A DNA stretch of 64,000 bases from Okamejei kenojei (lineage: Eukaryota): contig CM069149.1 in NCBI GenBank assembly GCA_035221665.1, forward strand, positions 13,392,001-13,456,000, read 5' to 3'. The notes under the pieces were generated by a model. It saw only the letters and a program-made list of their open reading frames with translations. It had not been told where the DNA came from and searched no databases. Positions 6,930-61,521 of the stretch are shown here, in pieces. How positions within the stretch are numbered: position 1 is the first letter of the stretch; every line of letters begins with the position of its first letter. A program made the position numbers and the translations under genes.

Positions 6930-7115
6930 TAGAGAAGATGGATGCATGAATAGCTCAGCGGTTTAGGCAGCATCTCAGGTCAACATTACAATCTGAAGAA
7001 GGGTCTCGACTGGAAATGTCACCTATCCATGTTCTCCTGGGATGCTGCCAGACCTGTTCAACTATAACGGCACTCTGTCTTATTTTGTAAATCAGCATCT
7101 GCAATTCCATATCTC
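6930..7115 (+). mobile_element. Penelope-LTR-like short repeat with degenerate hammerhead core (inverted plus direct arms)
   Basis: CTGAAGAAGGGTCTCGACTGGAAATGTCACC at 6993, preceded by an inverted family segment (CTCAGCGG..GGCAGCATCTC). Confidence 0.6.
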
Positions 7116-9715: not shown

Positions 9716-10114
9716 AGAAAATCCGATAAATGTGAAAGCACATTTAGCAATAATCAAACAATAATGGTCTTTAATTCAACCCAAGAAGAGTTATCACTCG
9801 TTTACCTTCCTATCTAAATGAATGTACATGTCATCTCTTATTTGCACATTGTATTATTTTAGATATTGAAATAATATGTGTAGTTTTTTATTATGAGAAA
9901 TAATGGGCTTGTTTAAACCATCCCACCTCTTACACAATTGTGTGGTAGATTATAATTAGTTAAATACCAAACATCACAGTTCTTTACATTTTAAATGCAA
10001 AAAATTGAGCAATAAACACTCATAAAAGGCAGATAAGAACCTACTTTCCAAATCTGTGGTCTAACAATATATTTGGTACCATCATTTAAATTTAATGTTA
10101 ACTTAATAGAGTAA

Positions 10115-10201
10115 GAGACACAAAAAGCTGGAGTAACTCAGCAGGCCAGACAGCATCACAGGAGAAAAGGAATAGGTGACGTTTCGGGTTGAGACCCTTC
10201 T
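10115..10201 (-). mobile_element. Penelope-LTR-like short repeat (truncated in the hammerhead core)
   Basis: AGACACAAAAAGCTGGAGTAACTCAGC..GGTGACGTTTCGGGTTGAGACCCTTCT. Confidence 0.7.
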
Positions 10202-11609
10202 CCTAACCCGTGGGTTATCTGGTAGTTGGTCTGGCGTGAGAAGCTACTTGCGTGAGATTTTTAGCAGATCTGTGGTGAAGAAGAAGTAGGGCGCACCATC
10301 CAAGCTACTCTAGCTTCCCCGTCTTCCTCCTGCCATCTAATCTCAGTCCGTTATCCCACTGAGCTCCACCTGACCTTCATTGCTGCCATCCCAATCACTA
10401 GTGATTTACCAGTGCCGTTCCCCTTAAAAATTACACAAAGGAACTACTCATCTACTCATATTCCATGTTTTCTAAAAAGTAATGAGTCATTTAAATATGT
10501 GATTGCTAACAAATTTGAATAATTTTCCCATAGTTTACTGGCAAGAGAGTAGTTTTGTGCATTAAACAAGGCATATCTTATTGAAGGACAAATGATTTAG
10601 GCCGAGAAAGGCATGTAAATGTGAAGTAGCTCATGGATTCAGTATCAGGATTGTGCAAGCATTTTATGCAGCCATGTTCTACTACACATGTGCTCAAGTT
10701 ATGTGCTCACTGAACACTAAGAAAGAGTATTTAAAGAAAACCTGCTCTGAACAATATGGATGCTGAAGTTATCACGTACAATAATAAAAGCCTTACAAAA
10801 GGAAGCTCATACATATCGCCTGTTTTCCCATAATGTCTGACCATTGTTAACACTGGAGAATGCAGAGGAAGTGACCATCAGAATGGCCAGGTTAGGTGGT
10901 GGAGAGGAGAAAAGGATCACACATGGCCAGTTGGAAAATGGTGACTGATGGATGTATTGGGTGATTCAGTTTGTTTGCGGAGATGAGCTGATAGGACTTG
11001 GGCAGTCAATTGACAGGGCAAACATCATAGGAAATGCCAGTGATTCTGGGAAGAAAGGTTGGGCAGATAACAGCACCAATGATACAGAGAAGGGTATAGT
11101 GAGACTGTTCACTAAGGAAGAGTACTTAAAGAAAATCGTGCTCTGAAAAATATGGATGAAGAAAATATTCCCCAGAAAAAGCATGGAGATGGTGGAGCCC
11201 TTAAATAGCACCAGAAAGTGCTTTTCTCTTAGGTTAAATTTAAATTCCCTGGGCAATGCTCACATTGTTTGCAGACTCATATGTGCAGTACAGTGTGCGC
11301 AAGTGACATCAAAACAGCCATACCATGCCACTTGACTTCCTTGAGCTCATTCAGCCACCTCTGTGCTTCCAATCATTATGTTCACAGGGGCCTCGGCATC
11401 TAATCTCCAAAGGTGTACGCAAAATGAAATAAGAACCAGATTGTACTTAGCATTTGAATTTTTTTTAGTATAAAATATCAATGCAAAGCAGTACTAAATG
11501 TCTGCGTCATTGTCCTCTTAATATTTTTACATCCATTGTTCTTTAATAATAGACCAGATTGTATGCATTAACAGGCATTAGCTATACGCAGAGATTGGAC
11601 AAATTTATA

Positions 11610-21961: not shown

Positions 21962-23035
21962 TATTAAGTTTATTATTTTACATGTACCAGTGTACAGTGA
22001 AAAGCTTTGTTTTACATGCTACCCAAACAGAACAATTATACTGTAGATAGATAACAATCAGTTCAAACTCAAGTACAATCGAGAGAGCAAAGCGGAAGAT
22101 CTTCTTATCGAGTCCCTTACAGGATTAGAAGTTGTTCAGCCAGAGCTGAACACACTTCTCGGCATCTGCACAATGGTGTTTGTCTTGCGCTTCTTGTGCT
22201 TCTTGTGTGTAGTGGTGGAAACAGGGCCATGACGTGAAAGCTCTTTCCTTGACCGCAAAGGGGAAGATACAGAGTGCAGAATATAGCTCATAGTTTTGTA
22301 ACGCATTGTAGTGCATCAAGTCGTTGGACAAAGTCAAATATCCTTAATGGGGTAAAGATGAACTGAACATTACCCTAGCTTATGGAAGGACTGTTCAGAA
22401 GCCTGATAATGAAGGGGAAGAAGCTGTTTTTATGGTGCATGCTTTCAAGCTTCTGTACCTTCTGCCAAATGGAAGTAGGGAGAAGAAGGAATGACTGAGG
22501 TGGGATTGATTGTTGAAAGCTTTTCTGAGGTAGCATGATGTGTAGAGTCAATGGTAGGAAGTTTGGGCTGTGTGATGACTGGACTATATCTATAACTCTG
22601 CAATTTCTTGCGGTCTTGAGCAGACCTATTTGCAAACCAAGCTGTGATACAACGTGACAGTATGCTTTCTGTGGTGCATCTGTAGAAGTTTGGAAGAGTC
22701 ACTGGAGACATGCCAAATTCTTCTGTCTCCTCAGGAAGTATAGGTGTCGGTGTGCCTTCTTAGTTGTCGAATTAATGTGGTTAGTCCACGACAGGTTGTA
22801 ATGTTAATGCCAAAGAACGTGAAGCTCTCAAACAGTTCCACATCTGCACTATTGATGCTATTGGGGCATGTTGTCCGCCATGCTACATCAAGTCAATAAC
22901 TAGCTCCTTGAACTTGCTCGCATTGAGGGGAGACTATTGTCCTGACACCATGTCATTAAGTTCTCTATTTTCTTCATGTACTCCGTCTCATAATTGTTTG
23001 TGATTTGGCCCATGACAATGGTGTCAATAGCAAAG
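21962..23035 (-). mobile_element. Rex1/Babar-type LINE 3' fragment (RT C-terminus plus 3' UTR)
   Basis: Minus-strand translation NFYRCTTESILSRCITAWFANRSAQDRKKLQ matches the Rex1 motif FYRCTIESILT.CITAWYGN; frameshifted. Confidence 0.8.
22101..22254 (-). mobile_element. Short 5'-truncated non-LTR insertion (AAG tail) nested in the Rex1 3' UTR
   Basis: Flanked by GCAAAGCGGAAGAT / GCAAAGGGGAAGAT (22087-22100, 22255-22268); the minus strand ends ...GACTCGATAAGAAG. Confidence 0.65.
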
Positions 23036-24029: not shown

Positions 24030-24540
24030 AATATCTTTACAGAAACAATGTAGAGGCTTTGGAGGTGGTGCAGAAGACATTTATCAGAATGCTGCCTGGA
24101 TTAGAGGCCATTCGCTATAAAGAGAGATTGGACAGACTTGGATTATTTTCTCTGGAACACCAGAATTGAGGAGCGACCTGATAAAAGTATATCAAATTAT
24201 GAGAGGCATAGGGTAGATGGTCAGTACCTTTTTGTCAGGGTGTCAATCTCAAAGACTAGAGGGTATAGCTTTAAGATGAAAGGGGAAGTTTAAAAGAGAT
24301 GTGCAGGCCAAGCTTTTTAGAGGGTGCTGGGCACCTGAATCACACTGCCATGTTTAGTGATGGCAGCAGATACAATAGTGGTGTTTAAAAGGCTTCGAGT
24401 TGGGCAAATGAATATGCGGGGAATGGATGAGTATGGAATTACGTGTAGGCAGATGAGATTCATTTATCTTGGCGTCTTGTTCGGCATAGACATTGTGGGC
24501 CAAAGGGCTTGTTCCATGCTGTATTTATCTATGTTCTATA
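24030..24540 (+). mobile_element. CR1-type LINE 3' fragment
   Basis: Encodes ALEVVQKTFIRMLPGLEAIRYKERLDRLGLFSLE (CR1 ORF2 C-terminus), then 3' UTR and a TATGTTCTAT tail. Confidence 0.85.
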
Positions 24541-26579
24541 GCAGTCATGAAGAGTATACTGGCTTTAAAGAATGGAAAATCGCAGGATGAAATAATATCA
24601 ATTTTAACTCTTTAAAGAAGCAAGATGAAAACATTATGTTCCATTATGTTCTTCCAAAATTTCTTGATACACAAATCATGCTTTTAGATTGTAAAATTAA
24701 TTGAGTTATTATATATTTTTTAATCTAAAAAATATACCTTTCTACCTTTAAGAAATTGTAAACAACATCTAAAATGTCCTCTCAGGATACTACTAGGGGT
24801 TTATAATTAGTCGACGCCCCTGCTTACCACCACTTCTCTTTTCTAGCTTTCACTCCCCTACTACAATCAGTTTGAAGAATGGTTCTGACCTGGTTCGGTG
24901 CCTACCCATTCCTTCCACAGACTGATCCATCAGCATGTTGTGTTTTCTTGAGATTCCAGAATGTGTACGTCCTTGTAACAACTACCTTCAGCTGATCATA
25001 GAAAGCCAGTATGGATGTGAAAAGGATAGAGCATACCCAATGAACCCGAATTAAGGTTTTCAACCAGTGACTAGGAATTTCTACATTGATTGTTTCTATG
25101 AATTCTGGTAAGGCATTTGATAAAGGTCCTCAGAGAAAACTGTTAATTTAAGGCAGTTAATTTACCAGGTCAAAAACAATGACTGCATGTAGGACAATGA
25201 GGTGAGATCATGAGCAGCTTCTGAAATTTGAAAAGTGTCTTGAAATAAACCATAGTCTAAAAATTATGCACATTTCTTCAACAAGTAAAGTATGAAAATG
25301 TCTTTACAACTAAAGAGTAGCAGAAATTTGGAAATGTCTTCTGCAAGTTACAATTAATGATCAGTCAATTGTTGATATAAATATGTGAATTTTTGACATT
25401 TGTTAACCAAAAAAATGTATGGCATAGACCAAAGGCAGAGATATGCGGCGAGGTGGATATTTAGTAATTTGGCCACATAGCAGCTATTATTTCATTGAAT
25501 AGCAAAACCCACTGAAGGGGCTATATGACTATTACATTCTGATAGGTACAGAGGTTCCCTTTAATTTGCCATCAAATGTTTCACCATACAAATGTGGGGT
25601 GGGGTGGGGGGTGGAGGGGGACAAAGAAGGAACCAAAGATATTTATGGGTACTTTGTAACTGTGTCTGCATCTTCTGGCAGCTCTGTGTACTGTGTATGT
25701 AAAAACAAAGAATTTCACTGTAACCTCACAGTACATGTGACAATGAAGTATACATCCATCCACCCATCCTGTTGAAAGTAAGATTAGCACAGATAATTAG
25801 TAATTATGAAAGTAAGACCTCAAGCTGATCAGCAATGTCATCAGACAAGCAGTGTGGATTTCTTGCCATCCTCTGGTAATTTTACATTTAAATTGAAAAT
25901 TGTACCTGATATTCTTATAGTATCCCATCATTGTTTTTTATTTTATTAGCATTACTTTTTAACTTTTCTACTGCAACTATTAATTAAAAAAACTTGACAA
26001 CTTAACCCACATTTTTTCCACATCATTTAAAAAAAAAATATTTTAAGCTTGTGTGTCTGAAGAAAATTTTACATTGAATTACATTAACTTTAAGTATTTG
26101 GGATCTCACATGTCTCCACGTTATATTGCATCTATTATCTATCCAGCCATTCAACCAGTCCTCTTGTGTTTTCCTGATATAATTTACAATAATTCACAGC
26201 CTGCTACAATACATGTTCAATTCACTGATCTCCTTCATACTTCTTCCCTTCAGGTTAATGACCGTGCCGTGGCACTCATGTTAATGTGCATGTTGACACA
26301 GTTTCATATAAATGTATGCTGTCTCATTTCTCTATGACTTTTTTACACCAATATAAATTTCAGACTACTGTCAAAGGATGAGCTCAAATGTTTATCATCT
26401 AATATTTTCATTTGATGCATCTACACATCCCACTTTTCATACCACAGCATGAAATATATTGTTAGAATAATTCAGAAAAATCCATTCTCATAAATGATAG
26501 GGCTGAAACCAAGATAAGACTTCTACGAGGAGGCGGAAATAAAGCGAGTCTTTTCCTTTCACAAGTTCCTCTGTGGTAG

Positions 26580-27069: not shown

Positions 27070-27341
27070 CAAACACTTTTTCTCACAGAGAGTGGTGAGT
27101 CTGTGGAATTCTCTGCCTCAGAAGGTGGTGGAGGCAGGTTCTCTGGATGCTTTCAAGAGAGATCTAGATAGGGCTCTTAAAAACAACGGAGTCAGGGGAT
27201 ATGGGGAGAAGGCAGGAACGGGGTACTGATTGGGAATGATCAGCTGAAGGCTGAATGATCACAAATTGAATCTCTGGTGGTGCTGGCTCGAAGTTTCTGC
27301 CGACTGGCCCTACTCCTGCACCTATTGTCTATTGTCTATTG
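27070..27341 (+). mobile_element. CR1-clade LINE 3' end
   Basis: FSQRVVSLWNSLP motif and a (CTATTGT)3 tail; paralogous to 7511-7746. Confidence 0.85.
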
Positions 27342-28899: not shown

Positions 28900-29880
28900 T
28901 GGTTTATTATGTCACATATACCAAGATACAGAGAAAAAAATGTGTTTGCATGCTAAACAGTCAAATCATACTACATGAGTACAGTCCAAGCATACACAAG
29001 GGCAAAAAGAAAATATCAGAGTACAGAATATATGGTGTAAAATCATTATAGTGTTACAGTTAGAGATGGCACAGAGAGAAAAAAGTTTGTGTCGCTGGTG
29101 GGTTAGGGGTTTATGGTCTACACCTTTCACTTATGAAAGGATCGCTCGGTGGTTTGATAACAGCAGGGAAGAGACTCTTCCTGGATCTGGTGGTGCGTCC
29201 TTTCAAGCTTTTGTATCATCTGCCTGATGGGAGAGGTGAAAAGTGAGGATGGGAAGGCAAAAATGCTCCATGATTATTTTGGCTACTTTCCCAAGGCAGC
29301 ATGAAATGTAGGTGGACTAAATATGGGAGGCTGGTTTGTGTGATGGACTGGGCTATCCACAACTCTCTGTAACTTCTTGTGGTTTTGCGCAGAGCTGTTG
29401 TCAAACCAAGTTGTGATGCATCCCAATGGGTTGCTATCTACAATGCATCTGTGGAAGTTGGGAAGAGTTGTTGGAAACCATTGAACTTCTTTAGTCTTCT
29501 GAGGAAGTAGAGGTGTTGGTGTGCTTTCTTGACTGTAGCCTCAATGTGATTGTTCGAAGACAAAATGACGATGATGGATATTTCTGGGAACTTAAAGCTC
29601 TTAATCACCTCCCTGTGCTAACTGGCCATATATACCACTTCTAGTTTCCTAGATCCTTCGTCTTGCTGACATTGAGGGAAAGGTTGGTTGTCCTGATACT
29701 CTCTTTTTCCTTCCTGTATTCCATCTCGTCACTGTTTGAAGTCCAGTCCAATACACTGGTGTTATCTGCAAATATATAAATAAAGTCAGAGCAGAATTTA
29801 ACTGCACTGTTGTGAGTGTATCGGGAGTATAGTAAATGGCTGAAAATGCATCCAGGTTGGGTACTGATGTTGGGACCAGC
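28900..29880 (-). mobile_element. Rex1/Babar-type LINE 3' fragment
   Basis: Paralogous to 21962-23035 (TGTGATGGACTGGGCTAT, AAACCAAGTTGTGATGCA, TGAGGAAGTAGAGGTGTTGGTGTGCTTTCTT); HFSPLPSGR motif. Confidence 0.75.
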
Positions 29881-30160: not shown

Positions 30161-30290
30161 CTGAAGAAGGGTCTCCACCCAAAACCTCATCCATTCCTTC
30201 TCTCACGAGTTACTACCTGTCCTGCTGAATTACTCCAGCATTTTGTGTCTATCTTTGGTGTAAACCAGCATCTGCAGTTCCTTCCTACAC
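30161..30290 (+). mobile_element. Penelope-LTR-like short repeat (mutated hammerhead core)
   Basis: CTGAAGAAGGGTCTCCACCCAAAACCTCA..TACTCCAGCATTTTGTGTCT..AAACCAGCATCTGCAGTTCCTTCCTACAC. Confidence 0.7.
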
Positions 30291-32016
30291 ATTACATTCA
30301 ATATCTTTGCATTTCTTCACTATAAAATTCTAGGCCAAAGCTTTGGTTGAGCAACCAATTTTCTTTGAAGACAGAAGGGACAAATTTTGAACAAAAAACA
30401 AACTGCTGGATAAATCTACCAGTTAGACAATTTGGGGTCAGTTAAACAGTTCTGCTTTACCTCTTTCACAAAGAAATCTGCAACGTATTTCGCCAGAAAT
30501 TTAACAATGATTAGAATACTACTTTATATGTTTGCGATGATTTGTTGTTTCCACGATCCTGTCTTAGTTTTTACTCTAGTTTATTTTTAACATGAATATG
30601 TCTTAAAGGATTATTTTAAAAAGTGCCCGAAACCTACATCTGGGTAAGTTCTTTTCTTGCACACTGTAATTCTAAATAAATAAGGTGTGGAGTTACAGAG
30701 TGCTAGTAGGATGGCCTGAAACTATGAAAGGCCATCATTCTTGGTGGGAGAGGTAAATAAGCAGCCCACTGCACCCTACCCACAATGATTCTTAATCTTA
30801 AACTAGAATTTGGAATATAACTTTTCTATCACAATTTCCTGCAGCTGAATGCTTTCCATGACTGGTCCAAAGAAGCCATTAGACACGCTGTATAAAATGT
30901 CTTTACCACCCCTCAGGCTTCTTGGGAGCGATCATGTGCATTTTGTTACAGGCTGTGTTTTTGTTGTCTTGTATTCATTTATCCCAACAGTGCATTGAAT
31001 GGCAGGCATGCATTATGTGAAAATGCATTAAATAATTAAAAACGTTGTTGAATTTTCTTAACTAAAATAATTGGTCAATTATTCATGATGAAATTATTGT
31101 TACATTCATATAATTTACACATTGTTTGGTACAAGAATTCAAATATGAAGCATCAGAACAATCAGGATGTACTCGATAGAAAACAGACTCTAAATTAATA
31201 CTGGCAGTTTTGCTGAGGCATAGTATTTAAAAAAAGATGAAATAGACTGTGTTTACAGAGTAAAAATATGAAGTACTGCATGGATTCCTGATTCAGGGTG
31301 AACAATATTCAGACGATACTTTTATAGTTTGAGTTCACATTTCACAAATTTAGAAATGTGAAGCTGGATTCTTAAACAGATTTTGAATGCCATTTCGGCA
31401 ATTACTGAAATTGACAGTTATCTTCTGCCTCTAATTTCTTACATTTAAAACATAGCTGAAACGGTTGTTGAAAGTAAAAATGTGTGCTGATAGTACAGAT
31501 AAACTGGTGTCTGCATTGGAATGATCAAATTGCAGAATAAATTCATACTTGTGCATGGTTCACTTTCCAATTTAATTATGATCAGTTTGTCTCGTACTGT
31601 GAATATAGTCCATAAATAGTGTCTCCATCTAATTTAAGTGCATTGAGAAAACCTGTATTTTACAAGCCATAGAATTTGAGATCTGCAATTTAGAAAAAAT
31701 AAGAGAAATTAAACTATCAGCTAACAATAATGCTGCACAGTTTTTGCTCTGAAAATATCCAAGTAATCATTTTGATAATGATGAGTAGCTTTCTACGATG
31801 AGACCAAAAACATGGATCAATATGAGGTTTCCAGTGGAATTTAACTCCACTGATTTTTCCCATTAAATGTATTGGGCTCTGAATAACCACCACATGACGG
31901 CCTAAGTTTATTTTGACACTGTTATTTTCAAATCATATGTTAATAGAAACTTTAAACTGTATGCTTCACTTCTTGAAATACCCTGTGAATATTACTCTCA
32001 TGTTTGTTTTTTACAG

Positions 32017-33689: not shown

Positions 33690-33850
33690 TGCTTTATTAT
33701 TGTTATGTGTATAGAGGTACAGTGAAAAACTTTGTTTATCATGTTATTCAAACAGATCAAATATACTATACATAAGTACAATTAAGTCAAACTTAAGTGC
33801 AACAGATAGAGTGAAGGGGAAGATACAGTGTGTGGAATATAGTTGAATAT
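33690..33850 (-). mobile_element. Rex1-type LINE 3' UTR tail
   Basis: TTTATTATTG..GGTACAGTGAAAAACTTTG..AAGGGGAAGATACAG; paralogous to 21970-22290. Confidence 0.65.
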
Positions 33851-33982
33851 GCATCCAATTAATATAAGGCTTATCGCTCATTTTCGGTCTTTTCAATCGG
33901 AGTTTCCTGTCTTATTAAGTGTTGAGATTATTTGAACCATGGCATGTGTGAATACCATCAGGGCCTGCATTTCTGTCCTTAA

Positions 33983-34699
33983 TGGGCCTGTCCCACTTTG
34001 GCGACTTTTTAGGCGACTGCAGGAGACTATGCAGTCGCCACATGTTCACGGGTGGTCGCCGGGGAGTCGCCTTCATGGTCGTGAGGAGTTCCCGCATTCT
34101 GGGAACTAGTTGCGGCCTCATAATGGTCGCCGTGAACTTTTCAACATGGAGCGTAGCGAGAATTCTCGAGCCGTATGTGGGTTGCCAGGAGGTCCTAATA
34201 GGTTGCCAGGAGGTCGAAGTTTCTCGGAGGTTCTCGTAGGTTGTAGCCGGTGTTGACATGTGAATTTCATTGGCTCATTGGGAAAAAAAGGTTAAGCAGT
34301 AGTTTTAACCGGATAACCGACCGGTAATGTTAATGTCCGCCGAGCTTCACAGCCGTGTATCTCTGATTCTTAAAAGTTGTCTCCACTCCGTTTCCCCCCT
34401 CTCCTCCCCTCTTTTAAAGGATGTACTGTGGTTTAGCCATCTTTTTACAACGCCAACCTTCCTGTTCATCGCGGTGTGTGTCTGTTTCACCTTGGCTGTG
34501 CACCATGTGAATTTTTTAGACAGCGCTCCCCCGCTTGCCCTGTCCCCCGCCTGCATGACGGGCTGGTGAAGGAAGCGATGTGTTTGTGTGTGTTCCACTC
34601 TGACAGTCGCCGTTCCAGTTGCCGGATTTTCAGGCGACTGCCAGCAACTTGACAGTCGCCGGCAGTCCGCTGAAAAATCGCCTAAGTGGGACAGGCCCA
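33983..34699. mobile_element. Complete PIF/Harbinger-type MITE (~717 bp)
   Basis: Perfect TIRs TGGGCCTGTCCCACTT / AAGTGGGACAGGCCCA with GGCGACT subterminal motifs; flanks are TAA and TTA. Confidence 0.88.
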
Positions 34700-35722
34700 T
34701 TATGTGACTGCTTAAAGGACAGAAATGCAGGCCCCAATGATATTCACTCAACAGTACCAAACCTTCATGTCATTTGACATTTGCAACGTATTATTTGTAA
34801 CTCAACTTGCGGTGAAGATAAAGTAAGGAAGCCTTTCAAAGTCTCCGCCATATCCCTTGATACATCCAAGTTCAATTTTGAAGACTTCATCAATCCGGCC
34901 CACAGTCCGGGATAGCCCTCTAAACTCTAACACAACTGAAAAAGCCATTACTATAACTACATTATCTTCTCTGCCATCCTCTTGATATACCTTTCATTGT
35001 CTTTAGCTGAAATCCATACCAATTCCTTCTCCTGAGGTGAACTTTTTTTTACTTGTAAAAATATTTCTGCCTTTGTTTGATTGGTCATTGAATCTGACGC
35101 AGATTTTTCCTATGTTCCTTTTTCACTGCGGAGATAGCAAAAAAAAACTCTTTTAAGTGTATGAATAAATAGAACAGACGTTTCCATGAATGCATCTTAT
35201 TATTTCAGTAATGCTGTAATTCTATTAGGACTCTTTACTGAATATGGTTCGAGTCTTTTGCCGACTTTGCCGTCATGCCTTCATGAATCTGGCACCAGCT
35301 TGATATTTTAAGATTTTAGATGAGGTTTGGCCGACCAAGTTAAATCTAATATGTTACTGACACAAAAGTCATGAGTCCATCACATTTTTCATGTTGCTGC
35401 CTAAAACACGTCACAGTTACTGCTAAAAGCTAAGGCCAGGACCCGATTACTCATAGTTTCCCTACTAACATGTGTAGCAAAACAGTTGTTTCCTATGCAT
35501 GCACATCTCTCATCTGCCCTTCACTTGAAGATATATTACCATTAAATCATTGCATATCTTGGAATTTAACCCCTGTTCCCACTCTTTTACATATATTTGT
35601 AATTCAGTTGCTCTTGAAATTGTTCCCCGCAACACCTCAATATAATAGGCCAGTTGATTAACAATGGTGGTTTGACTGCTAATTTATTTAAAAACTAATA
35701 AAGGTGAGGTCTCCCATTCCAG

Positions 35723-41467: not shown

Positions 41468-41606
41468 AACTAGCATATTAAAACAGTATTGTAATTCTTA
41501 TGTCCAGCTATAATAACACACTCAAAAACCCATTGCACCTAATTCGTATGAAAGGTAATATTTCAGAATACATTAAAAGATTTCTGGCTAACATGAATAA
41601 TTTGTC

Positions 41607-41790
41607 AGTACACAGAAGGCTGGAGAAACTCAGCGGGTGCAGCAGCATCTAAGGAGTGAAGGAGATAGGCGACGTTTCGGGTCAAGACCCTTCTTCAGAC
41701 TGGTCAGGGATCAGGGAAACTAGAGATATAGACGGTGATGTGGAGAGATAAGGAACAATGAATGAAAGATATGCAAAAAAGTATCGATGA
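41607..41790 (-). mobile_element. Penelope-LTR-like repeat with intact minimal hammerhead core
   Basis: Minus strand reads AGT-CTGAAGA-A-GGGTC-TT-GACCC-GAAA-C-GTC (41698 to 41671). Confidence 0.75.
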
Positions 41791-42869
41791 ATAATTTGTC
41801 GTAAGTTTCTTCAAACCATGATTTTGTTTGTAGCTGTTCATAATCCATTATTTAGGGAACATTCTTCACCTAAAATAAAACTATTAATGTACAATAAAAT
41901 CAATATATTATCCTGAATCATATGATAGTATGTCATTACTGTTCAATTTATGCCCTTAAATGAGCAACTGAACCAACATTTAGCTATTTTTCTTAATAAT
42001 AGCTCCTTCTGACACCTTAATTGAAGGAATGCACTTATTTTAATTATAACTTTGTAGATTATAGGTATTGCTATGGAGGACCGATACCTAAATTTGAAAT
42101 TGTGCCTGTGGTGAATGCTAAACCCATTACTTCTATGCTTCTTACATATAACTTCATTCTTTTCAAGATTTCTTTTGTAATGAATTGAGATTTTTTTTTT
42201 CTGATTGAACTGAGCTATTTTGTACTGTGACAATTTCCTATATTTTACTGTTTGTTTAAATTTGTGCTGTGAGTGTATTCAGGGCATTTTGTGTCACACA
42301 GTGTGTGTTTCATTGTTTAATTGGGTGCTTAATTTAAAGAAAAATTACTATAAATAACTAATTCAAAATGCAATTTCAAACGGTTTCAGCAACAATAATC
42401 TGTTTTTTAAGAGGATCTTTTCAGAACATAACATGTTTTTTTATTATTATATTACAGGAAACAACAGCTTATGTTTAAACATGGCTATTACTCTCTCCAT
42501 TTGAGTTTTCTTTTACATCTTTGCAGCATATTTGAGTATATTTGTATTGTTTTAGAATTGACATAAAGTCAGGCTTCTGGTATTTGTGCTTCAATAAAAA
42601 CTACAATTAGAACAAAAATGATGAAGGAAGAGAGAGTACCAGGATAACGCTGAAAAAAATGTGCTGCAAAATAATCTGAATAATGAGATCTATTCTTTTG
42701 TGGGATGAGATGTAAATTGCTCGGACAGGGAATCATGTAGGACTTTCATTTAGGAAACTGGGATTTTGATAGTGTAATACCACTAGGAATGAAAGGAATG
42801 CAACTAATGCAACAATAAATGTAGGCGTACTAGTCTTAACCCAGGGCACATCATTATAGGCACGTTTGC

Positions 42870-42955
42870 TTGAAGAACGTTCCCGACCCGAAACGTCACC
42901 CGGTCTTTTCCTCCAGAGATGCTGCCTGACCCGCTGCATTATGTGTTTATCTTTA
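42870..42955 (+). mobile_element. Penelope-LTR-like short repeat
   Basis: TGAAGAACGTTCCCGACCCGAAACGTCACC..CTCCAGAGATGCTGCCTGACCCGCTG. Confidence 0.7.
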
Positions 42956-43630
42956 GCCTATAACCTCAATTAGACTGCATACACTTGAACACAGGCTCAC
43001 CTTTAAGAAAATCAAAGATATTTCAGTGGACAACTTAACTGATTTACACTTGGCGTGAACCTGCGCCGGAGCAAAGCTAGAATGTAGAACCATCTGATTT
43101 AGATACCCTGTCGATAGACCAGTTATTTCCCTTTACTGATAGCGACTGTCTTGGGGTTCTTTGCAACATTTGATAAAGATTTAACCTCTGCTTTGCAGTG
43201 CTTCAGTATTTAGTGCCTTGTCTCCCTCTCCCCTGCGCGAAGTGTCAAAACAATATTTAAAAAAAAACATATTATTAAAATACCATTAAAAGTCAGCGAA
43301 AGGGTCTCCCAGTCACCCAGTCTTTCACTCCAGAGAACATTTTGTGTCAATCTTTGCTTTTGATTGTTCAACAGTTGCAACCGCGTTGCATCAGCAGGAA
43401 ACTATACAGCGATGCCCTGCTATTTGTGACCATCGTGGGAGGAATGGATACGCCACAGCTCCGCTACAAAATGTAAACTAGATCAATGCCAATATTTGTT
43501 CCACATTTCTTTATAATCCGTACGCTTGTTTTTACGTTCTCGCCTGTTCGTGCACTCGCTATCTTTCAGTGCAGTGTATGCATTATTCATATAGACTGAC
43601 TTCTGTGTTACATTTTAATATAAATAAACG

Positions 43631-43718
43631 AAGATAGACACAAAACGCTGGAGTGGGTCAGGCAGCATCTCCGGATAGAAGGAATGGGTGACGTTTCGAG
43701 TCGAGATCCTTCTTCAAA
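43631..43718 (-). mobile_element. Penelope-LTR-like short repeat
   Basis: AGACACAAAACGCTGGAG..GGTGACGTTTCGAGTCGAGATCCTTCTTCA. Confidence 0.7.
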
Positions 43719-45947
43719 CTATAAATGAACTAAGGTTTATCAAGGAATTAATATTTGTTAGTTTACTACCTTATTTACACTAAGGAAACTCTACAGTCAA
43801 CAGCCATTAGGGTATATTTTTGCATTGCTTCCTGTTGATTCCTATTATGGACGTGGCTGGATTCACCGCACGCAATGTCAGCGTGTCTCATGATGCAGTT
43901 TACTGAGTTTAGCTCGTCCTGATGTGTCGAGCGATAATTGAATACTGCTTAAAAGTAATGATCGCGTTACCTGTGTGTCATCTGGTACTCGTGTGCAGAA
44001 AGCGTCGTATACATTCGTTTGGCAAGTTGAGAGAGGAAAGATAATCTCAATCAGCAAACAGCAAATAGACTGAAGGTAGACAATCGTATTGTTGCAACTT
44101 ATTGGTGAACATTTCAAATGATTTAACAGACCTGCGGAATAAAGATCATCAAGCATCGATCATAAACGGCACTGAACGGTAAGATTGCAATTGTTTTGCA
44201 AATCCCTAAAATAGTTTATATTCCACTTGCACTGTCCTACGGTTGTTGTATTTTCAATACAGAGGTGATTCGTGTTGTCAGCGGCGTGGTTTAACATGTC
44301 TGAGTGATCGTTCGGGACCCTCGGGGTGGTTGTAAATGTCTTGTTCGCTCTGAATCAACAGAATGATTTCAAATTGCACCTGATGTTGGAATTCCGATTC
44401 AGAACTAAAGCTTTCTAGTATTGCATCTTTTTTGGTGTTTGTTGCTTTAAACTGTCTCGCGTCTTGTCCTCAATAGAAGCATGATCAGACCTGCTGAGTG
44501 TGCATTGTTACACTGTTTCTTATGAAACGTTAAGCCTTTGACCCGTCACAATGCAATCCCGTGTTTGCACTCCACGCTTGTGGAGTCCACGTTTAAACAT
44601 GTGACATACTCAGAAGTATGATCCTGGCGGAAAGGAGTTGAATCAAATAAACAATTAAACTTCGGCGAAGAGGAAATTGTTCGTCGTTTTTGACGCTACC
44701 GATAGGAAGATTTTTAGGAGCTTCTTCATCATACATACTTCCTTTTTAAACGCGACGTCGCTTTCCGCTAACTCAATTTCGCAATTTAAAAGACATTTAT
44801 CTCCCACTGAAAGATCACGATTACAAACTCACCTCTACGCACACTTTGCCCATGTAGAGGTGAGAAATGAAACCGTCAAAAACTGCGGTGAAAACAACTC
44901 AATAGCAAACATGTATGTGTATGTCATCCTTGGTACCAGACAACATTCATACGAGCATGACACCCATGTGCACAACACGAGGAAGTGGAAGGGGTTTCCA
45001 AGTCCATTGATCTTTTTTGAAAATTGTATCCAAAGTGAGGGATGGGTAATTGAGGATAAAAAAAGCAAAAACATTAGTCCTGACCCTAAAAAAAACATTT
45101 CTGTTCTCGTGTCGAAAGTTATGCCAAATGAATAATATTTTTTTTAAATAAATATTATCCTTCATATACAATGGCAAGTTATGCCAGTTGTTGAGTGGAT
45201 AATACTTTTCAAGGATGTTGCCATGTATTTGTCTTGTACTAAAAACTATTGAACACACCTTCCTTAAATATTTCCAGAAATGTATGCAGCGATGTGGTTT
45301 TGTATCAACCTATTTTGTCAAGACCCAAACACAGTGTTTTAAAGCTGCGTTTAATTTGAATGTGATCGCTGAGCGCATGTGTCAATTGGCGACTCAAAAA
45401 AAAATGTATTACCTCCAAGTGTTTATATGCTGCAAGTCACTGTAGGTTCCCATTATCGCCAGAGGAACTGGTCCATGGGCCGTCACGATACCCGCACAAA
45501 CCATCCCTACAAACACTCCCTAATCTGTGTCCATCCTACTTCAGTGGATGTTGGTGAATCACACGAAGTCGTGTTTCCCATCTCTATACTTTTTCGAAAA
45601 AAACCCAGAGAAATATGTGCCTCAAACATCTTGTCAGATTCGCAAATTGGCCGATCTGATATGCAGACGAAATTTTAAAAACACAACCTATCGAGTAAAA
45701 TGCTCAATTATATTGAATACTGACATGTTAATCATGCTGATGAACTGGCTCTCTTTATTTTTTCCGCACTCTCCCAGAGATCTATACTAAACAATCTGGT
45801 CTAATGTATTCAGGTAGTCAGATTGTTATCCACTCTATTGATTTATCGGAATATATAAACGTAATGTTCCACCCAGCTTTACTTGGCAAAGTAGGGTTTG
45901 CGTGTGTAGAAGCGAAGTGTCAAAACAATATTTGAAAACATACTAAA

Positions 45948-46045
45948 AGTCTGAAGAAGGGTCTCGACCCGAATCGTCACCCGTTCGTTCTATCCAGAGA
46001 TGCTGCCTGTCACGCTGAGTTATTCCAGCATTTTGTGTTTCTCTT
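45948..46045 (+). mobile_element. Penelope-LTR-like short repeat ~0.5 kb upstream of the ALX1 ATG
   Basis: CTGAAGAAGGGTCTCGACCCGAATCGTCACC..GCTGAGTTATTCCAGCATTTTGTGT. Confidence 0.75.
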
Positions 46046-46259
46046 CTTTTAAAACGATCAACAGGTTCTACGTTTAAGGAATTGATGAAATATAATGGAC
46101 AATACGACGTAAACAGTGTGAAGTTTGTCTTTGTCGGAAACAAAACGCGGGTTATTTGTAGCACTGTCGGCACAATATCAATATGAACAAAAAGAAACAG
46201 AAACTCGAGGCTGAAGCCTTTCGACTACCAAAGGCACTTTTACGTTTCGTTGCTGCTTA

Positions 46260-46365: not shown

Positions 46366-46471
46366 TCTCCAAAGCTTACCCACGGCCAAACGCTGCAGTT
46401 TCTATCTGAACGTATTCACAGCGAGAAAGGATCCCTCCTGCGAGACCTCCGTTAAATTGGTTTAGATGATT

Positions 46472-46694
46472 ATGGAATTTGCAAATGAGAATTTTCCAGT
46501 CGTTGGCCATTACTCGAAAGGGAACGAGTACTACGTGGGAGCAGAAGCAACCCTGGAACACGTTATGGACAGCATGGAAGGGGGACCTTTCTACAACAAG
46601 AATGCTTCAAAACGGATCCACACTTTTCTTAACATGGAAAGCAACGAGCCTCGTGAGAGACTTGCAAAGACCGTTCACGAGGACGGTGCGAACG
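46472..46694 (+). CDS. ALX1: ALX1 (CART1) coding exon 1
   Basis: MEFANENF..SKGNEYYVGAEATLEHVMDSMEGGPFYNK aligns with recalled human [37 protein letters not shown]; phase-1 donor AACG|gtaggt. An in-frame ATG lies 2 codons upstream (46466). Confidence 0.9.
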
Positions 46695-49600
46695 GTAGGT
46701 GTGACCACTACTATCTGCCACCACTATCGCCCGCAGTGTGTATGTTTTGGTTTATTTCACGGACAGGTCATCAAAAATAATAAAACAAATATCCAGAAAA
46801 TACCTTGTACATTTAAGTTGTCCATCGGTCTGCTTGCTTTGCGCATAGTTGTTGTAATTTGTCTTAAACGGTGCGGCGCAAATAATTGTCATCATTTTTA
46901 TATATAAATCTCTTTTTCAAGAATGGTGACTATTGCTTTCGAGAACTGTCTCATCTTAACCATAAATGACAAGCAGGAATTGCCGTTTATTCTGGTAGTT
47001 CCTCGATGTGGAGGTGATATGTTACCATAACAAACTATTTATCTTGTTTCAGTAACCTATTGTGCAGTCGGCGGAACATGGCGAAAGGTTTTCACAACTC
47101 TAATACAGCTACACATAAAATCTCCTTGACCTGTTTTATGACCTCAAGCTGCAGTTGATGTTTTTAGTTCTAAAATCCTCGACAGGCTAATTTCCAGTGG
47201 TCCGATTAATGCGGTATTGAGAAAAACAAATCACCGATACATTGTATTTGCTACATTGAAAGGTGATTAGCTGCTTGGTATTGTTTTTAAATGACAAACC
47301 CCTGAAGTAAACAACATCTGGGTTCTGTCCAGTGCTCAGGGTCGAACCCCCACCCCCATGGATTTGGTGCTTTCTTTATTATTGGGGAGAAGCGCACCAA
47401 TCCGTCATCTATTGCAAACCAGCCCTAAACAATTTCTAATCCAAGCAGTAAATTACTCGTCAATAGGGCTTTACATACCTGAGTATCTCATAATCTATGA
47501 GTTGCAGCCAACCCGCCTTGGGAGTGGTGGGGAGGGGTTGTGCTGTATATTTTAAGCGTAGTCCTATCTCTACCTCACAATAAATATTTGAAAAATATCT
47601 CTTTTGATTCAGACAGTTCAGAAGAAGGCAGACCTCTCTCGTCAGCTTATTGATCAAGAAACAGTGATGCAGTGTGTTTTAGTAATGATAATCTATTGTC
47701 TGGAATAATGAAACTTGTATTTAAATCCTGTCAAATCTATATATATTTATTTATTTTATTTTATTATAAGCTGTCAATGAAAGTGCCCTCGCTTTTCATT
47801 GTCTTAAGAATGAAAATAGTTTAACCTGTAGGTGACTCCGGGCCCAAACTAGTACTGGGATATAATTTAAGTGTTCTGCCGTGTTGCATTAGCGGTTTAC
47901 ACTGTTCCATAAAATAGCTCATCGTAATCATAATAGTCACGTTATTTGTGATGAAATATCTCGAGATTTCTTTGAAAAATAACTTTTAGAGTATTATTTT
48001 GTTTTAAACTTTGCATATCAAGATTATAAATCGGATTATAATCAGGATTATAAATAGCCGGCCAGAATGTCAAAATATTGAAATTCTTCAAATATTTCTG
48101 CACCATTACTAAATAAGAACGGCGAGCATTTGGGAGAAACAGGTCTAATACTCTACTTGTTACTTTGTTTTAATGAAAACGTTAGCGTCAATACAGAGGT
48201 ACCTATTATTGGATTGAGAATGGTTCTTTTATCTTTATATGTCTTGGGTGAAGTGTTCAGAATCTCACCTCAGCCAATGTGTTTGTAATGCACATTGGGT
48301 TATTGAAAGGACGTCCATTTATTTCTGAGTGTAAGTTCACAAGGCCGTCTCTATCGCCATTTCCCCCAGTGGAATATGACGAACCTTTAAAAATATACAC
48401 GCATCGTTGTTGTGGTAATAAAATGAACTTGTACTGGACAGAAAAAGTCGGTTTTGAATCAAAATAACCAGAAAATCGCAGCTGCCGGCGCTAAATTTCA
48501 TTGAATTGCCACGAGTTATTTAAAAATGGACATTAAAAATCTGCTTTTATTCTTCAACTTCTGCAATTGACTCGACAGACAAAAAAAATCATAACTTTTC
48601 CGAGGCAATGAATAAAATAATAATTATATATATTTATTACAACGTGTTTTCTATGGACATTAAAACGTGCACTTTGTAAGGTACGAAAGGTTGGCCTCGC
48701 GAATCTGTTTAGAATAACGGCCTGATGTCAGATAAACACGTTACAGTCAGAAAGGTTTCTGTGGACTGGCCTCAGGATATGAAGATTAAATAATATTTCC
48801 TAACGTAACGTTATTTTTTAATGTAATAAATGCTGAATGATTAGTTCACATTTAGTTGATTGCCTGATTCGCGTAATCTATTTTTTGATTACATTTTCTG
48901 AACCTGTGATAAATTGTTTCATTCTAAAACTGTTTATTTTCAACTGGGAAATTAAGTACTTTATTTAATTAGGAACTTGTATCAACTTCTAGGATTTTCG
49001 ATGAAGAATCATTTTGAGAAAGTACTGCGGAATGGAACTGGCGTGTGAACTGTTCAAAACCCTATGGACCTCTTTCTTTTAATCAGATCTGGTTTCAATT
49101 GTCGTTGATTTCCTTTCATTGTATCTCCCGACGACCAGGCTGCGACTCGTTAGTTCCCCAAAACTAATGTGCAATCACACTGGGCAGCGACCATACCCCG
49201 GAAAGTAGTCATTCTTTTCGAAGTCCATGCCGCGAAACGAAATTTAGCCTAAACTCGGGACACGGCTGGAATTTCGTCTGCCTCGCTTGACACCGTACAT
49301 ATCATTCAGGTGCAATGCGAAACACTCTGGGTAATGATATGAATTACAGTCTGAGCAGCATTTACTAGTTGGCGTTTCAGTAGCCGACGGGGGATTTAAA
49401 CTCGGTACTAAATTACAGTTAAACAGCCAATGCCTCCTTCAGCTAATGTTCAGTCTGTGTTTAGTTTTCACGCAGGGATCATCTTTTCTTTTGGAAGAGT
49501 TGGGTTATAGATAGGAGAGAGCGAGGCATATTTAAAGATCATTCTCCCAGTGAGTGACCTACTAAATAATTAATTTACTGGAAAATTTTACCCTTTCGTT

Positions 49601-49716
49601 TCTGTGTCCGGGATAACAGTACGCATTGTGATTACTAAGCTTGCGTTGAAAATATTAATCTTCAATATGTTGCTCCTAGACCCGATAAAACGAAAAACAC
49701 GTGCATATTCTTGCCG

Positions 49717-49861
49717 AAGATAGACACCAAATGCTGGAGAAACTCAGCGGGACAGGCAGCATCTCTGGAGAGAAGGAATGGGTGACGTTTCGGGTCGAGA
49801 CCATTCTCCAGCATTTTGTGTCCAGCTTCGGTTTAAACCAGCATCTGCAGTTCCTTCCAAC
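49717..49861. mobile_element. Penelope-LTR-like insertion with inverted arms and a 14-bp flanking direct repeat
   Basis: GCATATTCTTGCCG at 49703-49716 and 49862-49875; a minus-strand arm is followed by a plus-strand arm. Confidence 0.8.
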
Positions 49862-51404
49862 GCATATTCTTGCCGTTCTGTGGTCGGGCACAATAGTTCA
49901 GTTAAATGAAATGATGTCCAGAAAAAAAAATGTAGGGATGCGATTTGTGAGTTTCTAGGAATAAAATAGCTAATTCGACAAACGGAATACAAAAAAAAAG
50001 TGCGATATCCCGAAACGGGGCGAGGAACGAATGTCTTCTACAACAACAGCCATTTCTCCAGTCATAGAGGTAATTGGTTATGTTGCCACAACTAATCTGC
50101 GGGTTTTACAACTTACAATGACCAGGCAGCGATAACGGGTTCAGAGCTAATATGCTGCGGTTTACTTTTGAGGAACATTAAAGATCAAGATTTTTTCAGC
50201 AGCTCATAAAATATATAAGCGGCCCCTGAGATCTTTCAGAAAACTGATTATTTTTAGTGTGAGAAAATGATGATGCAAGCGATTTTAAAGCTTGAACATC
50301 ATTGATCAATTAACAAGGACTATGGTGACAAATAATGAGCAAGGAATAGAAATAAGAAGCGGAAGCTTCCATCTTTTCCCCTGCTAAACATACCTTTTAA
50401 AATGGAAAATAAAACATATGTAAACATGTTGATGCTCTTTACCAGGCCATGCCTTCACTTTATGGTGTTAGAACTTACACACACGATCAGAATTCAATAT
50501 TCCGGAGATGTTATTTGTTGCATATCAGACGGTCCTAGTTATGCCTTTAGCCATTCAATTAAAAACAGCGCCAGCCTTGATCTGCTTCAAATAAGTAATG
50601 TTACTCTGTGTATATGGTTCAGTCAAAATTCTGGTTTATGTCTTAGTGTGATTATATTTTATTGTTTTTAATGAGTCAACAGAAACTAAATAACATTTGC
50701 AGATTTAATATGCCCAACACAAAAATATATATTTTGGCATATTTTCTCTAAAAATGTAGTATTTTACAGCCATACCTCAATTAATTTCCTCATGTAACAT
50801 AATGATTGATTGTAATGTATCAGCTTATTCCTCACTATTTTAGTTGTGGCCACCTAAACTGTGTGAGTGTCTGTATTGTAAGTGTATAACCCATGTCTAT
50901 TAAGAAATCAAAATCAGATGTTCATTTTCCTTAATATTGTGTGTGTGTGCGCACTTTAAAATTTATGAAACAAATTCTGTGTTCAATCTTTTCAAGATGA
51001 CATATGATTTGATGGTAACTATTTTAATTGTTATTAAACCATTTGAAGTTTATTTAGAAGAACACTTAGAATGACATCTTATAGTTTTTCGAATTCCTTC
51101 CATTCTTCCCTCTATCTTTCTTTACAACTTCCAATAGCCAGAGTAATAATTATATTATCTCTATAACATTTACAATGTGGATAGGTATCTTTCAGATCTT
51201 CTAAGTCCCTCGGATGATTTGCTTCTATTCCAGTTCTAAAGTGGGTTCTAAAGTGGCTGATGAGGCCAATGTGAAATATTGGACAGAGGGGTAGGTTGGG
51301 AGATTGTTACGCAGGGGTTTTGTAAGTTCTCGATGAATGGATCTGTGATGCGCAATACTATCCCAGATGTCCCTTCCCCATTTTGTCGTAAGCCAGGGAT
51401 TCCA

Positions 51405-52819: not shown

Positions 52820-53055
52820 GACAACTGGCATCATCAGAGACCCACACCATCCTGGCCAGATTCTCATTTCACTCCTGCTATCGGGAAGAAGGAATAGAAG
52901 CTTTTAAGCTGTAATGTCCAGGTTCAGGATCAGCTTCTTCCCTACAACCATTCTGCTTTTAAACATTACAAACTCCAAATAGGCTGTGAACTACATAGAC
53001 GTGTGGGTATTATTTTTAACTTTTCACTATTATTGTTTGTTTCATTATTTCTCTG

Positions 53056-53119
<64 letters not shown>

Positions 53120-53385
53120 CAGAGAAATAATGAAACAAACAATAATAGTGAAAATATATATATATTTTCTTGCTTGTAATAAGAAATTCTTACCTGCAAC
53201 AGCATAACCATAAAACCCATTATAAACAACAAATACGTTCAGTATATCTATAAACTGTACTTTTTGTTGTTTTGTTTATGGTACTTACAGGGTACTATGT
53301 TTAAATATCTGTTGTGCTGCTGCAAGTAAGAATTTCATTGTTCCGTTTCAGGACAAATAACAATAAAACATTATTGACTCTTATG
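52820..53385 (+). mobile_element. Rex1-type LINE 3' fragment containing the (TA)n palindrome
   Basis: IIRDPHHPG..LLLSGRR..RFRISFFP motif; tail GTGCTGCTGCAAGTAAGAATTTCATTGTTC..CAATAAAAC, also seen at 6040-6110. Confidence 0.7.
53021..53154. repeat. Perfect 134-bp palindrome centred on (TA)31
   Basis: 36-bp arm (53021-53056), then (TA)n (53057-53118), then the exact reverse-complement arm (53119-53154). Confidence 0.95.
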
Positions 53386-54087
53386 TCTCCGTTCCTTTGT
53401 GCAATTTAATTCTAAACCATATAGCAATTATTATTTTTTCACTTATTTTCTTCCAAAATTCAAATTTTCTGCATATTTTTTACCCTGAGGTCTCTACCCA
53501 CTATTTCTCTCCTCAACACTGTTTGTTAAGTTACCGTGTTTTCCGTGAAGTGCATTTTTGACATTGTGATTTTTGCCGCCACATCCAAGATAAATGTTAA
53601 TTGTAAATAGCATTGGTTCTTTATTCGCTGAATTGTTGCTTCTGATACAGCGCTCCAACACTAAATTTATTTCAGGAATTTAGTGGATGGAAGATGAACA
53701 TATTATTTTGCATCCTTAACTGACTACACCCACATTTTTTAAATAGTTTTCTTTGTGGATCAATTTCACAGCAAGAGGATTAATCCATAAAATCATTTAA
53801 ATTATCCAATTTCTTGTATTGAATTTTGTTATGGTTCCTTTTTCGTAAGGGTCTTACATATCATTGTTCTTAAACTTAAGAACCTCTAAATTTGACTTGC
53901 TATTTCCGAATACTGGCAGACCAGTTGTTTATTATTTGTATTACAGATATTCAACATCTGCACGGTTTTATTTTCTTTATGAAGTTGTAGTTTTTTTTTC
54001 CAGCCATTATCAGAGGACATAGTTGATGAAGGGCGTGTGTGAATTGGTTCCTGTTTGAGATGTTTTCTTGTTTTCTTTCTTGCCCAG

Positions 54088-54392
54088 CCAATTATGGCGT
54101 TTCAAAGCCAATGGGTACAGTGGCCTGTGCAGACCTGCCGAGACCCATCGAGAACTACTGTAACATGAAGGTGTCACCATTGAAAGGTCTGGAGGAAAAA
54201 TCTATCATGGATCACAATGTTGACAAGAGTGACTCCAATGTCTCCAGCACCAAGAAGAGGAGAAATAGGACAACATTCACCAGTTTACAGTTAGAAGAAC
54301 TGGAGAAAGTGTTCCAGAAAACCCATTACCCAGATGTGTATGCTAGGGAGCAGCTGGCTCTTCGCACGGAGCTCACCGAGGCCAGAGTTCAG
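54088..54392 (+). CDS. ALX1: ALX1 coding exon 2 (homeodomain residues 1-46)
   Basis: ttcttgcccag|CC...GTTCAG|gtaagc, 305 nt. Encodes [69 protein letters not shown]. Confidence 0.97.
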
Positions 54393-54746
54393 GTAAGCAA
54401 CTACCACTCACTGAACAAACCTGGTTATGAAAAGCATTTGGTGAATATTTAGTGGCATGATTGATTACGGCCATATTTTAAAATGCGTCTTCAGTATATG
54501 ATGCGCGATGCTCTCATGCACCGATAACTTTCTGAAATAAAATAAACACAAATGACTGTTGTAAAATCTGTTGGCTAAGATGTTGTGTTAATATTAATGA
54601 AGTTATCGCTGCACTTTGTTTGCAGTGGATTAAATCTGACAGCAACTTCCCAAATAAGCATGTGAGTTATTAAATCTTAAAATGCATAAGTTGCTGCTTG
54701 AGTTGCTGTTGCTCTTCCCAAACGTTTACTGCACCAGTAACTCGTT

Positions 54747-61361: not shown

Positions 61362-61392
61362 GTAGGTGAAATGAAGGGAGACGGGATTGTGT

Positions 61393-61521
61393 AGGAAGGA
61401 ACTGCAGATGCTGGTTTAAACCAAAGATGGACACAAAATGCTGGAGTAACTTAGTGGGTCAGGCAGCATCTCTGGAGAAAAGGAATGGGTGACGTTTCAG
61501 GTCGAGACCCTTCTTCAGAAT
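61393..61521 (-). mobile_element. Penelope-LTR-like repeat with near-intact hammerhead core and a 9-bp flanking direct repeat
   Basis: GGATTGTGT at 61384-61392 and 61522-61530; minus-strand core CTGAAGAAGGGTCTCGACCTGAAACGTC. Confidence 0.78.

Follow-up and report, generated by a model that had tools for sequence, protein, structure and literature searches.

Identification of a minimal hammerhead motif

Within the window, by which the whole analyzed stretch of 64,000 nucleotides is meant, a short dispersed repeat carries what looks like the catalytic core of a hammerhead ribozyme. This raises the question of whether the repeats are working ribozymes, a mobile family of their own or remnants of a larger element. 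The copies are most likely end-pieces, probably dead ones, of a Penelope-like element (PLE), a kind of repeat that is already known. The flagged copy reads AGT-CTGAAGA-A-GGGTC-TT-GACCC-GAAA-C-GTC on the minus strand (41671-41701) and contains the following elements:

41671..41698, minus strand: minimal type I hammerhead core, with C3 at 41698, an extra A at 41691 and C17 at 41671
41690-41686 paired with 41683-41679, minus strand: stem II of this core, followed by GAAA and the ACGU palindrome

The cut site of this hammerhead is predicted between 41671 and 41670. An earlier reading of the DNA letters alone (hereafter the sequence-only reading) had given a consensus head for the family, which is found on the minus strand as described, but at 41671-41701 loop II is UU and not UC, and GCC instead of ACC follows the cut site.

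For metazoan PLEs, the consensus CUGANGAH, stem II from G to C, GAAA, N, palindrome, U and H is given in the part of Cervera and de la Pena (2014; PMC4209133) considered here, together with the recurring traits of minimal hammerheads, namely a base between positions 9 and 10.1, a G10.1-C11.1 pair and a palindromic stem III without a loop. All features of the published consensus are present in the flagged copy, and the proposed hammerhead core was also matched by a descriptor at 41698 on the minus strand. The ACGU palindrome noticed in the place of stem III could be found at 41671-41698 and in the majority of copies. The extra A had been regarded as a tolerated variant; it is present, and A9.1 is invariant in 10 of 10 copies, but it is a regular trait of PLE minimal hammerheads and not a rare variant. 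Helix I consists of 2 pairs, in agreement with the very short stem I reported before, and reaches 2 bp at best among the copies with an intact core.

The descriptor combined the core with a stem II of at least 3 bp, GAAA and a self-complementary stem III, and matched the window at two sites, 41698 and 61518, both on the minus strand. In 60 block-wise dinucleotide shuffles, the mean number of matches was 0.28 for any match and 0.017 when C3 and a stem II of at least 4 bp were required. Of the 10 copies covering the core region, 5 retain every core letter, with U3 in one case, and the five stem II pairs are complete in only two of these 5. The G-U closing pair claimed for the copy at 61491-61518 could be read from the sequence.

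The Rfam search of the window with E-values up to 5 returned no hammerhead family and no tRNA- or 5S-type head, and its matches fell mostly on a (TA)n hairpin at about 53050. Metagenome contigs, viral contigs and prokaryote genomes contained 0 matches to exact or degenerate core patterns. Judged by the sequence features tested, the window motif belongs to the minimal hammerheads of PLEs.

Genomic context

The window consists of AT-rich animal DNA with a GC content of 33-45%. An aristaless-like homeobox exon was found at about 54250-54400, for which ALX4 was the top match among solved structures. The gene is presumably of the ALX1 type.

46467-46700 and 54030-54400, plus strand: exons of the ALX homeobox gene

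The first coding exon of this ALX-type gene likely starts at 46467. Three repeat copies (45948, 49811 and 51500; n = 3) are located immediately upstream of the gene or in its probable first intron.

Other repeats were observed as well. A long (TA)n tract inside a palindrome with 77-nt arms (53011-53164) is the origin of most spurious Rfam microRNA matches. Elements with terminal inverted repeats beginning GGGCCTGTCCCACTT are present at 8986-9307, 33980-34702, 4761-4809 and about 19802, and look like MITEs or DNA transposon remnants. A further repeat family at 21992-22759, 29005-29243 and 33717-33842 contains short frames, which we take to resemble LINE ends (Rex1/L2-type). Two repeats with two copies each (7511-7676 and 27079-27244; 11564-11784 and 24097-24524) are probably LINE 3′ ends, and a low-complexity C-rich tract of about 350 bp extends from 177 to 523.

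Copies of the repeat family

A family profile was built from 12 pieces of the window; these training pieces match by construction, while 43292 and 6942-6979 were outside the training set. The profile search identified 14 pieces at 12 of the 13 previously listed loci, with E-values from 5.7e-41 to 8.5e-4, and the reversed window used as control gave a single match with an E-value of 3.5. The earlier count of about 13 copies in 64 kb therefore holds for 12 loci, which form one family by the profile, but not for 59165, which is borderline and was kept outside the family count. This locus had no match to the family profile. In comparison with the two best references, 4.5-5.4% of 1,000 random window stretches scored equally well as 59165, and with three other references 12-72%. 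At 59165-59225, the minus strand weakly resembles, from end to end, the 3′ part of the tail, and this stretch is possibly an older related family. The following copies were characterized:

41607..41786, minus strand: whole 180-bp insertion (the flagged copy), with a 5′ extension (41702-41786), the hammerhead and a tail (41607-41670) with short 3′ end; limits based on the target duplication, the contig depth profile and the empty-site joint from 41592 to 41787
49703..49875: head-to-head inverted pair, with hammerhead and short tail on the minus strand (49717-49811) and an inverted long-tail piece on the plus strand (49806-49864)
49703-49716 and 49862-49875: 14-bp target duplication of this pair
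6935..7111: second head-to-head inverted pair, with a short-tail piece on the minus strand (about 6935-6979) and hammerhead and long tail on the plus strand (6992-7111)
61388..61518, minus strand: copy with intact core, G-U closing pair in stem II and long tail; 9-bp direct repeat 61384-61392 / 61522-61530
30161..30291, plus strand: copy with long tail and broken core (G12 to A); 8-bp direct repeat 30142/30291
10114..10203, minus strand: copy truncated within the core, short tail
24815..24980, plus strand: older copy with decayed core and a pyrimidine-rich 5′ extension of the second type; left limit approximate
42870..42956, plus strand: copy with broken stem II and short tail
43290..43358, plus strand: copy with an internal deletion; 22-nt leader in common with the 45948 copy
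43626..43720, minus strand: copy with U3, a stem II mismatch and short tail; weak 7-bp direct repeat
45948..46054, plus strand: copy with altered A15.1 and short tail, about 420-520 bp upstream of the likely ALX-type start codon
51408..51511, minus strand: tail-only piece

The leader precedes the 43292 and 45948 copies as an exact 22-nt sequence (43237-43258 = 45912-45933) that is otherwise unique in the window and was reproduced by chance in 0 of 100 shuffles. A local duplication or a transduced flank could account for it, as could a third 5′ extension.

Anatomy of the insertions

Exact flanking direct repeats of at least 8 bp were found at 4 of the 12 loci, with lengths of 14 bp (41593/41787 and 49703/49862), 9 bp (61384/61522) and 8 bp (30142/30291). 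Among 1,500 random pairs, repeats of at least 11 bp occurred 0 times, those of 9 bp in 1.3% and those of 8 bp in 3.7%. At the other 8 of the 12 loci no target duplication of at least 8 bp was present, and the repeats of 4-7 bp seen there are at chance level. For the inverted pair at 6935..7111, no target duplication was found in the flanks.

41593..41606 (left) and 41787-41800 (right): 14-bp target-site duplication of the flagged copy

Owing to this duplication, the flagged copy can be delimited as a 180-bp insertion (41607-41786). The empty site was also detected: among the joints listed for 41560-41830 in runs X14, X15, X18 and X1, 41592 and 41787 are connected, at flank depth, in a contig of run X14, with 0 such joints in the other three runs. 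Sequencing run X1 is probably DNA.

Each of the two inverted pairs (49703-49875 and 6935-7111) consists of one short-ended and one long-ended arm, and an opposite-strand joint 41663/41700 was found in 3 of the 4 runs. With regard to the 3′ ends of the 14 pieces, 8 are short, 5 are located at reference positions 121-131 and one is ambiguous (24870; 88 by local alignment, 131 by profile). Seven of the short ends fall at reference positions 88-104; the eighth is that of 49811, which was set by the target duplication, the local alignment extending to 116. The two groups of 3′ ends are about 30 nt apart and correspond to the 'tail' of PLEs. Neither poly(A) nor a repeat tail was found at the 3′ junctions.

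Inverted pairs with a one-sided tail and the absent 3′ repeat tail are PLE features. The traits of EN+ PLEs that are present in the repeat are an optional tail of 30-40 bp, an inverted 5′-truncated copy and a target-site duplication; the optional 30-40 bp tail and the inverted 5′ copy are described in the parts of PMC8557442, PMC3846280 and PMC8969392 considered here. The Penelope origin suggested in the sequence-only reading is strengthened by the target duplications, the inverted pairs and the two 3′-end classes, which had gone unseen there.

Abundance, extent and tandem joints

The summed contig depth over the core was 370,000-650,000 times that of the flank in three runs, which is not a copy number and indicates an order of magnitude only. 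The density in the window (12 per 64 kb) corresponds to about 190,000 per gigabase. Approximately a quarter of the depth continues into the 5′ extension of the flagged copy. Loose ends demonstrate in 4 of 4 runs that the element runs past 41790 in other copies (agreement 0.67-0.76), and a second, different 5′ extension at 41702 resembles the sequence ahead of the 24870 copy. The proposal of a self-contained non-coding family of 90-180 bp mobilized in trans is not demonstrated by these data, since the element extends past 41790 and has more than one extension. The longer copies fit 5′-truncated ends of full elements equally well.

Tandem joints lead from 41700-41704 back to 41662-41668 (a core unit of about 39 nt) and from 41702 back to 41608 (a 95-nt unit). 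Among the joints listed, those of the core in run X14 amount to at least about 108 times the flank depth, compared to about 370,000 times for the core. No tandem arrangement was found in the 64-kb window, where every copy stands alone at a dispersed site or belongs to an inverted pair. In X14, X15, X18 and X1, the 39-nt core is rarely duplicated head to tail; such duplications are natural candidates for an active dimer.

The 5′ boundary

By inspection, the junction to unrelated or inverted DNA lies no more than about 11 nt from C3 in 8 of the 11 copies with a core; among the remaining ones, one begins inside the core and two are longer. Two of the eight sharp-start copies share the leader described above, the possible third extension. 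In the contigs, loose ends that lead into mixed DNA are concentrated at 41700-41702. The preferred 5′ boundary is located about 30 nt upstream of the predicted cut, which argues that the copies were not made from cut RNA.

41696..41730, minus strand: pyrimidine-rich stretch ending in CAG ahead of the core, with an initiator-like 7-mer and TATA at −29

These features were scored against what we take to be the promoter and splice consensus sequences. In both longer copies, pyrimidines make up 73% and 77% of a stretch that ends in CAG, and an initiator-like 7-mer is located at AGT; TATA at −29 is present in one of them and absent from the second extension. Going by its letters, 41696..41730 may be a splice acceptor or a transcription start. 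The 5′ edge of helix I is the place where an intron ends in D. virilis (PMC4209133, in the part considered), and this edge, along with the pyrimidine-rich stretch, its CAG and the initiator-like 7-mer, suggests that a transcription start or a splice site could fix the end.

As a tentative proposal, held with rather less than even confidence, the AGT boundary may be the start of the Penelope RNA, either as an initiator or as a post-intron exon, with a very large share of the copies being run-offs from priming at the 5′ tail or products of a short ribozyme-headed RNA in trans. If AGT were the RNA start, the genome would hold natural footprints, in the order of 100,000, of both PLE reverse-transcription ends, uncut RNA would be shown as the template in vivo, and the hammerhead would not set the element end.

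Folding, covariation and decay

In the predicted monomer fold of the 41701 copy, the pairing probability is about 0.05 for stem II and 0.003 for helix I, and the fold is not that of a hammerhead. For six folds, z-scores ranged from −1.2 to +0.9 and the stability was not above that of shuffles. The earlier doubt about monomer activity is supported by these predictions.

For stem II, 0 pairs were changed on both sides among 10 copies and the covariation score was below the shuffle mean. Non-CpG mismatches amounted to 13/110 in the core and 74/498 in the tail (P = 0.46). Within the window, there is thus neither covariation nor preferential core conservation, the two findings that the sequence-only reading had named as evidence against itself. 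The power of this comparison is low because it covers only 10 young, neutrally decaying copies of one family. The negative result speaks against activity of the window copies, not against the origin of the motif. From the lack of stem II covariation and of extra core conservation, it can be concluded that the copies decay neutrally.

The contig data show no variant of at least 3% from C3 to G10.3 or from A13 to A15.1, whereas changes of about 7-11% occur at the catalytic G12, a base within a CpG. Two non-CpG stem II variants of at least 3% (41682 and 41686) retain a G-U pair. These variant counts are biased near a private indel of the window copy. The pattern fits, without proving it, selection in the source elements and neutral decay after insertion.

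Search for an associated PLE gene

A six-frame scan of the window with short motifs revealed nothing convincing for an RT or GIY-YIG gene beside any copy. One frame of the tail is open in the 30161 copy for 44-45 codons and has no ATG. Protein searches with this frame gave 15 matches and 1 match, all of them short readings without a Pfam family and none an RT; P0015 among them looks unrelated. No long RT protein carrying the frame was found in the protein searches. The tail was also considered as the coding start of a PLE protein, as in PAc, and this received no support, since the frame has no ATG and the searches gave no RT. In several matched proteins, the reading passes from an inverted tail into the hammerhead, which shows that inverted joints also occur elsewhere.

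Three of the protein searches returned no PLE protein; two of these three used residues 90-158 of P0004 and returned P0004 itself only. In the ESM Atlas, unnamed clusters under 0.9 were all that was obtained. P0004 consists of a reading of hammerhead and tail followed by about 70 residues, the shifted frame of which is compatible with 11 of 14 shared C-terminal residues of PLE endonucleases, although the position of the catalytic Asn reads Asp. A score of 11 was reached in 6 of 2,000 shuffles and in none of 105 window stretches, and for the other 16 proteins the scores were 5-9; the test concerns 1 of 17 proteins with an ambiguous back-translation, and the motif was chosen after the stretch had been recognized. 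The resemblance is only suggestive of a link between P0004 and the GIY-YIG PLE endonuclease. The supplement of Craig et al. (2021) contains no shark entry and neither of two core motifs.

Proposed origin and alternative explanations

Taken together, the repeats with the minimal hammerhead are probably terminal (pseudo-LTR) pieces of a hugely amplified PLE family, present as short and probably dead insertions. The full element would be transcribed from the terminal repeat, with a hammerhead near the RNA start and again near its end. By analogy with PAc, as far as described in the part of PMC11167929 considered here, the RT/GIY-YIG protein would nick the target, and reverse transcription would begin either about 70 or about 100 nt beyond the cut. 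Insertion leads to a target duplication and sometimes to a head-to-head inverted second piece, as seen in the window. Since the copies retain the hammerhead in full ahead of the cut site, the template would be uncut RNA. Copies starting at AGT would represent run-off to the 5′ end of the RNA, and those with longer extensions ordinary 5′ truncations. Cleavage in the parent RNA would require either dimerization through the ACGU palindrome or the help of a protein, and the solitary genomic copies are predicted to be inactive.

That the repeats are instead a separate non-autonomous family is unlikely, if still a serious candidate. A short RNA starting at AGT and consisting of the hammerhead and a protein-binding tail would here be copied in trans by PLE proteins, with solo terminal repeats or a short master copy as the source of the RNA. 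The abrupt start of 8 of the 11 core-bearing copies near C3, the pile-up of loose ends with about a quarter of the depth entering the 5′ extension, and the initiator-like 7-mer at AGT in both 5′-extended copies, with TATA in one, speak for such a family, and trans action on pLTRs is documented in the part of PMC3846280 considered. A separate short master element would account equally well for the sharp 5′ boundary. However, longer copies with at least two different extensions exist, TATA is missing from the second extension, and no diagnostic changes private to the short copies were found among the 10 window copies. Run-off from the element's own full-length RNA after priming at the 5′ tail is favored over a short element copied in trans, and both predict the same 5′ end.

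The terminal-piece explanation was further compared with three others. A non-LTR retrozyme, whose tandem hammerhead units would self-cleave to give circular RNA for reinsertion, is very improbable: tandem joints with units of about 39 nt and 95 nt exist, but they are rare relative to the core, the window copies are all dispersed singles or inverted pairs, the unit ends at the 5′ edge of the hammerhead and not at the cut site, and helix I has 2 bp compared to the canonical 6. Similarly small is the probability that the likeness to a hammerhead is accidental, with the repeat being the tail of a different retroelement (LINE or SINE). The missing Rfam match, the monomer not folding as a hammerhead and the lack of covariation would agree with chance, but the descriptor hardly matches shuffled windows, the diagnostic features of the published motif are all present, the one-sided-tail inverted pairs and the absent 3′ repeat tail point to PLEs, and a tRNA- or 5S-type head was not found in Rfam. 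Least probable of all are working ribozymes kept by the host for regulating the ALX-type gene; three copies are indeed located upstream of this gene or in its probable first intron, but all three (45948, 49811 and 51500) are broken or coreless, the core accumulates mismatches like the tail, and the 41701 copy is missing at the same site in run X14.

For annotation, the repeats should be labeled as PLE ends and not as SINEs or working ribozymes. The family provides many insertions with defined 5′ and 3′ ends in a vertebrate genome, with which the copying of uncut RNA and the two internal RT starts, as observed in vitro for the Anolis element, are testable for PLEs.

Comparison with known systems

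Minimal hammerheads in PLEs have been known since 2014. In the part of PMC4209133 considered, monomers showed no cleavage and dimers low cleavage, and the motifs were mostly single, dispersed and tied to truncated PLEs; dimer cleavage by Lunse et al. is reported in a review (PMC6765202, in part). The window motif is identical to the PLE motifs in the core, the G10.1-C11.1 pair, the base between 9 and 10.1 and the palindrome, as far as supplementary Figure S3 of PMC4209133 was covered. Helix I has 2 bp, which is shorter than the 3-6 bp of most vertebrates listed in that part of the source and equal to the 2 bp of Drosophila virilis. Stem II, with 5 bp and a 2-nt loop or 4 bp and a 4-nt loop, also differs from that of the published PLE motifs. 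The density of about 12 per 64 kb is far higher than the 4,000-9,000 motifs per genome given for coelacanth and Xenopus in the same portion of PMC4209133, where only intact motifs are counted. The searched part of its supplement contains no cartilaginous fish, and the family adds a probable example from this group with a very short helix I and a very high copy number.

The non-LTR retrozymes of animals (Li, Clavereau and Pollet, 2026; 10.64898/2026.07.22.740005, in part) are non-coding, carry a type I hammerhead, are derived from pLTRs and were described with one chondrichthyan genome included. They are defined by tandem ribozyme units, whereas the window copies are dispersed and tandem joints are rare. 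The literature search found no paper on the family by name; the supplements of 10.64898/2026.07.22.740005 may list it.

For pLTR insertions in Adineta vaga and Drosophila virilis, target duplications of 8-10 bp and solo pLTRs are described in the parts of Arkhipova et al. (2013; PMC3846280) and Craig et al. (2021; PMC8557442) considered here. The duplications of the window copies reach 14 bp, and no reading frame was seen in the window, but the head-to-head inverted pLTR with a tail on one arm is common to both. In PAc, the Poseidon element of Anolis (Frangieh et al., 2024; PMC11167929, in part), two RT start sites flank the tail, and the template is mainly uncut RNA. The reading frame of PAc begins in stem II, unlike in the window family. 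In both, about 100 nt follow the hammerhead, and the 3′ end falls at two sites that are 30-40 nt apart.
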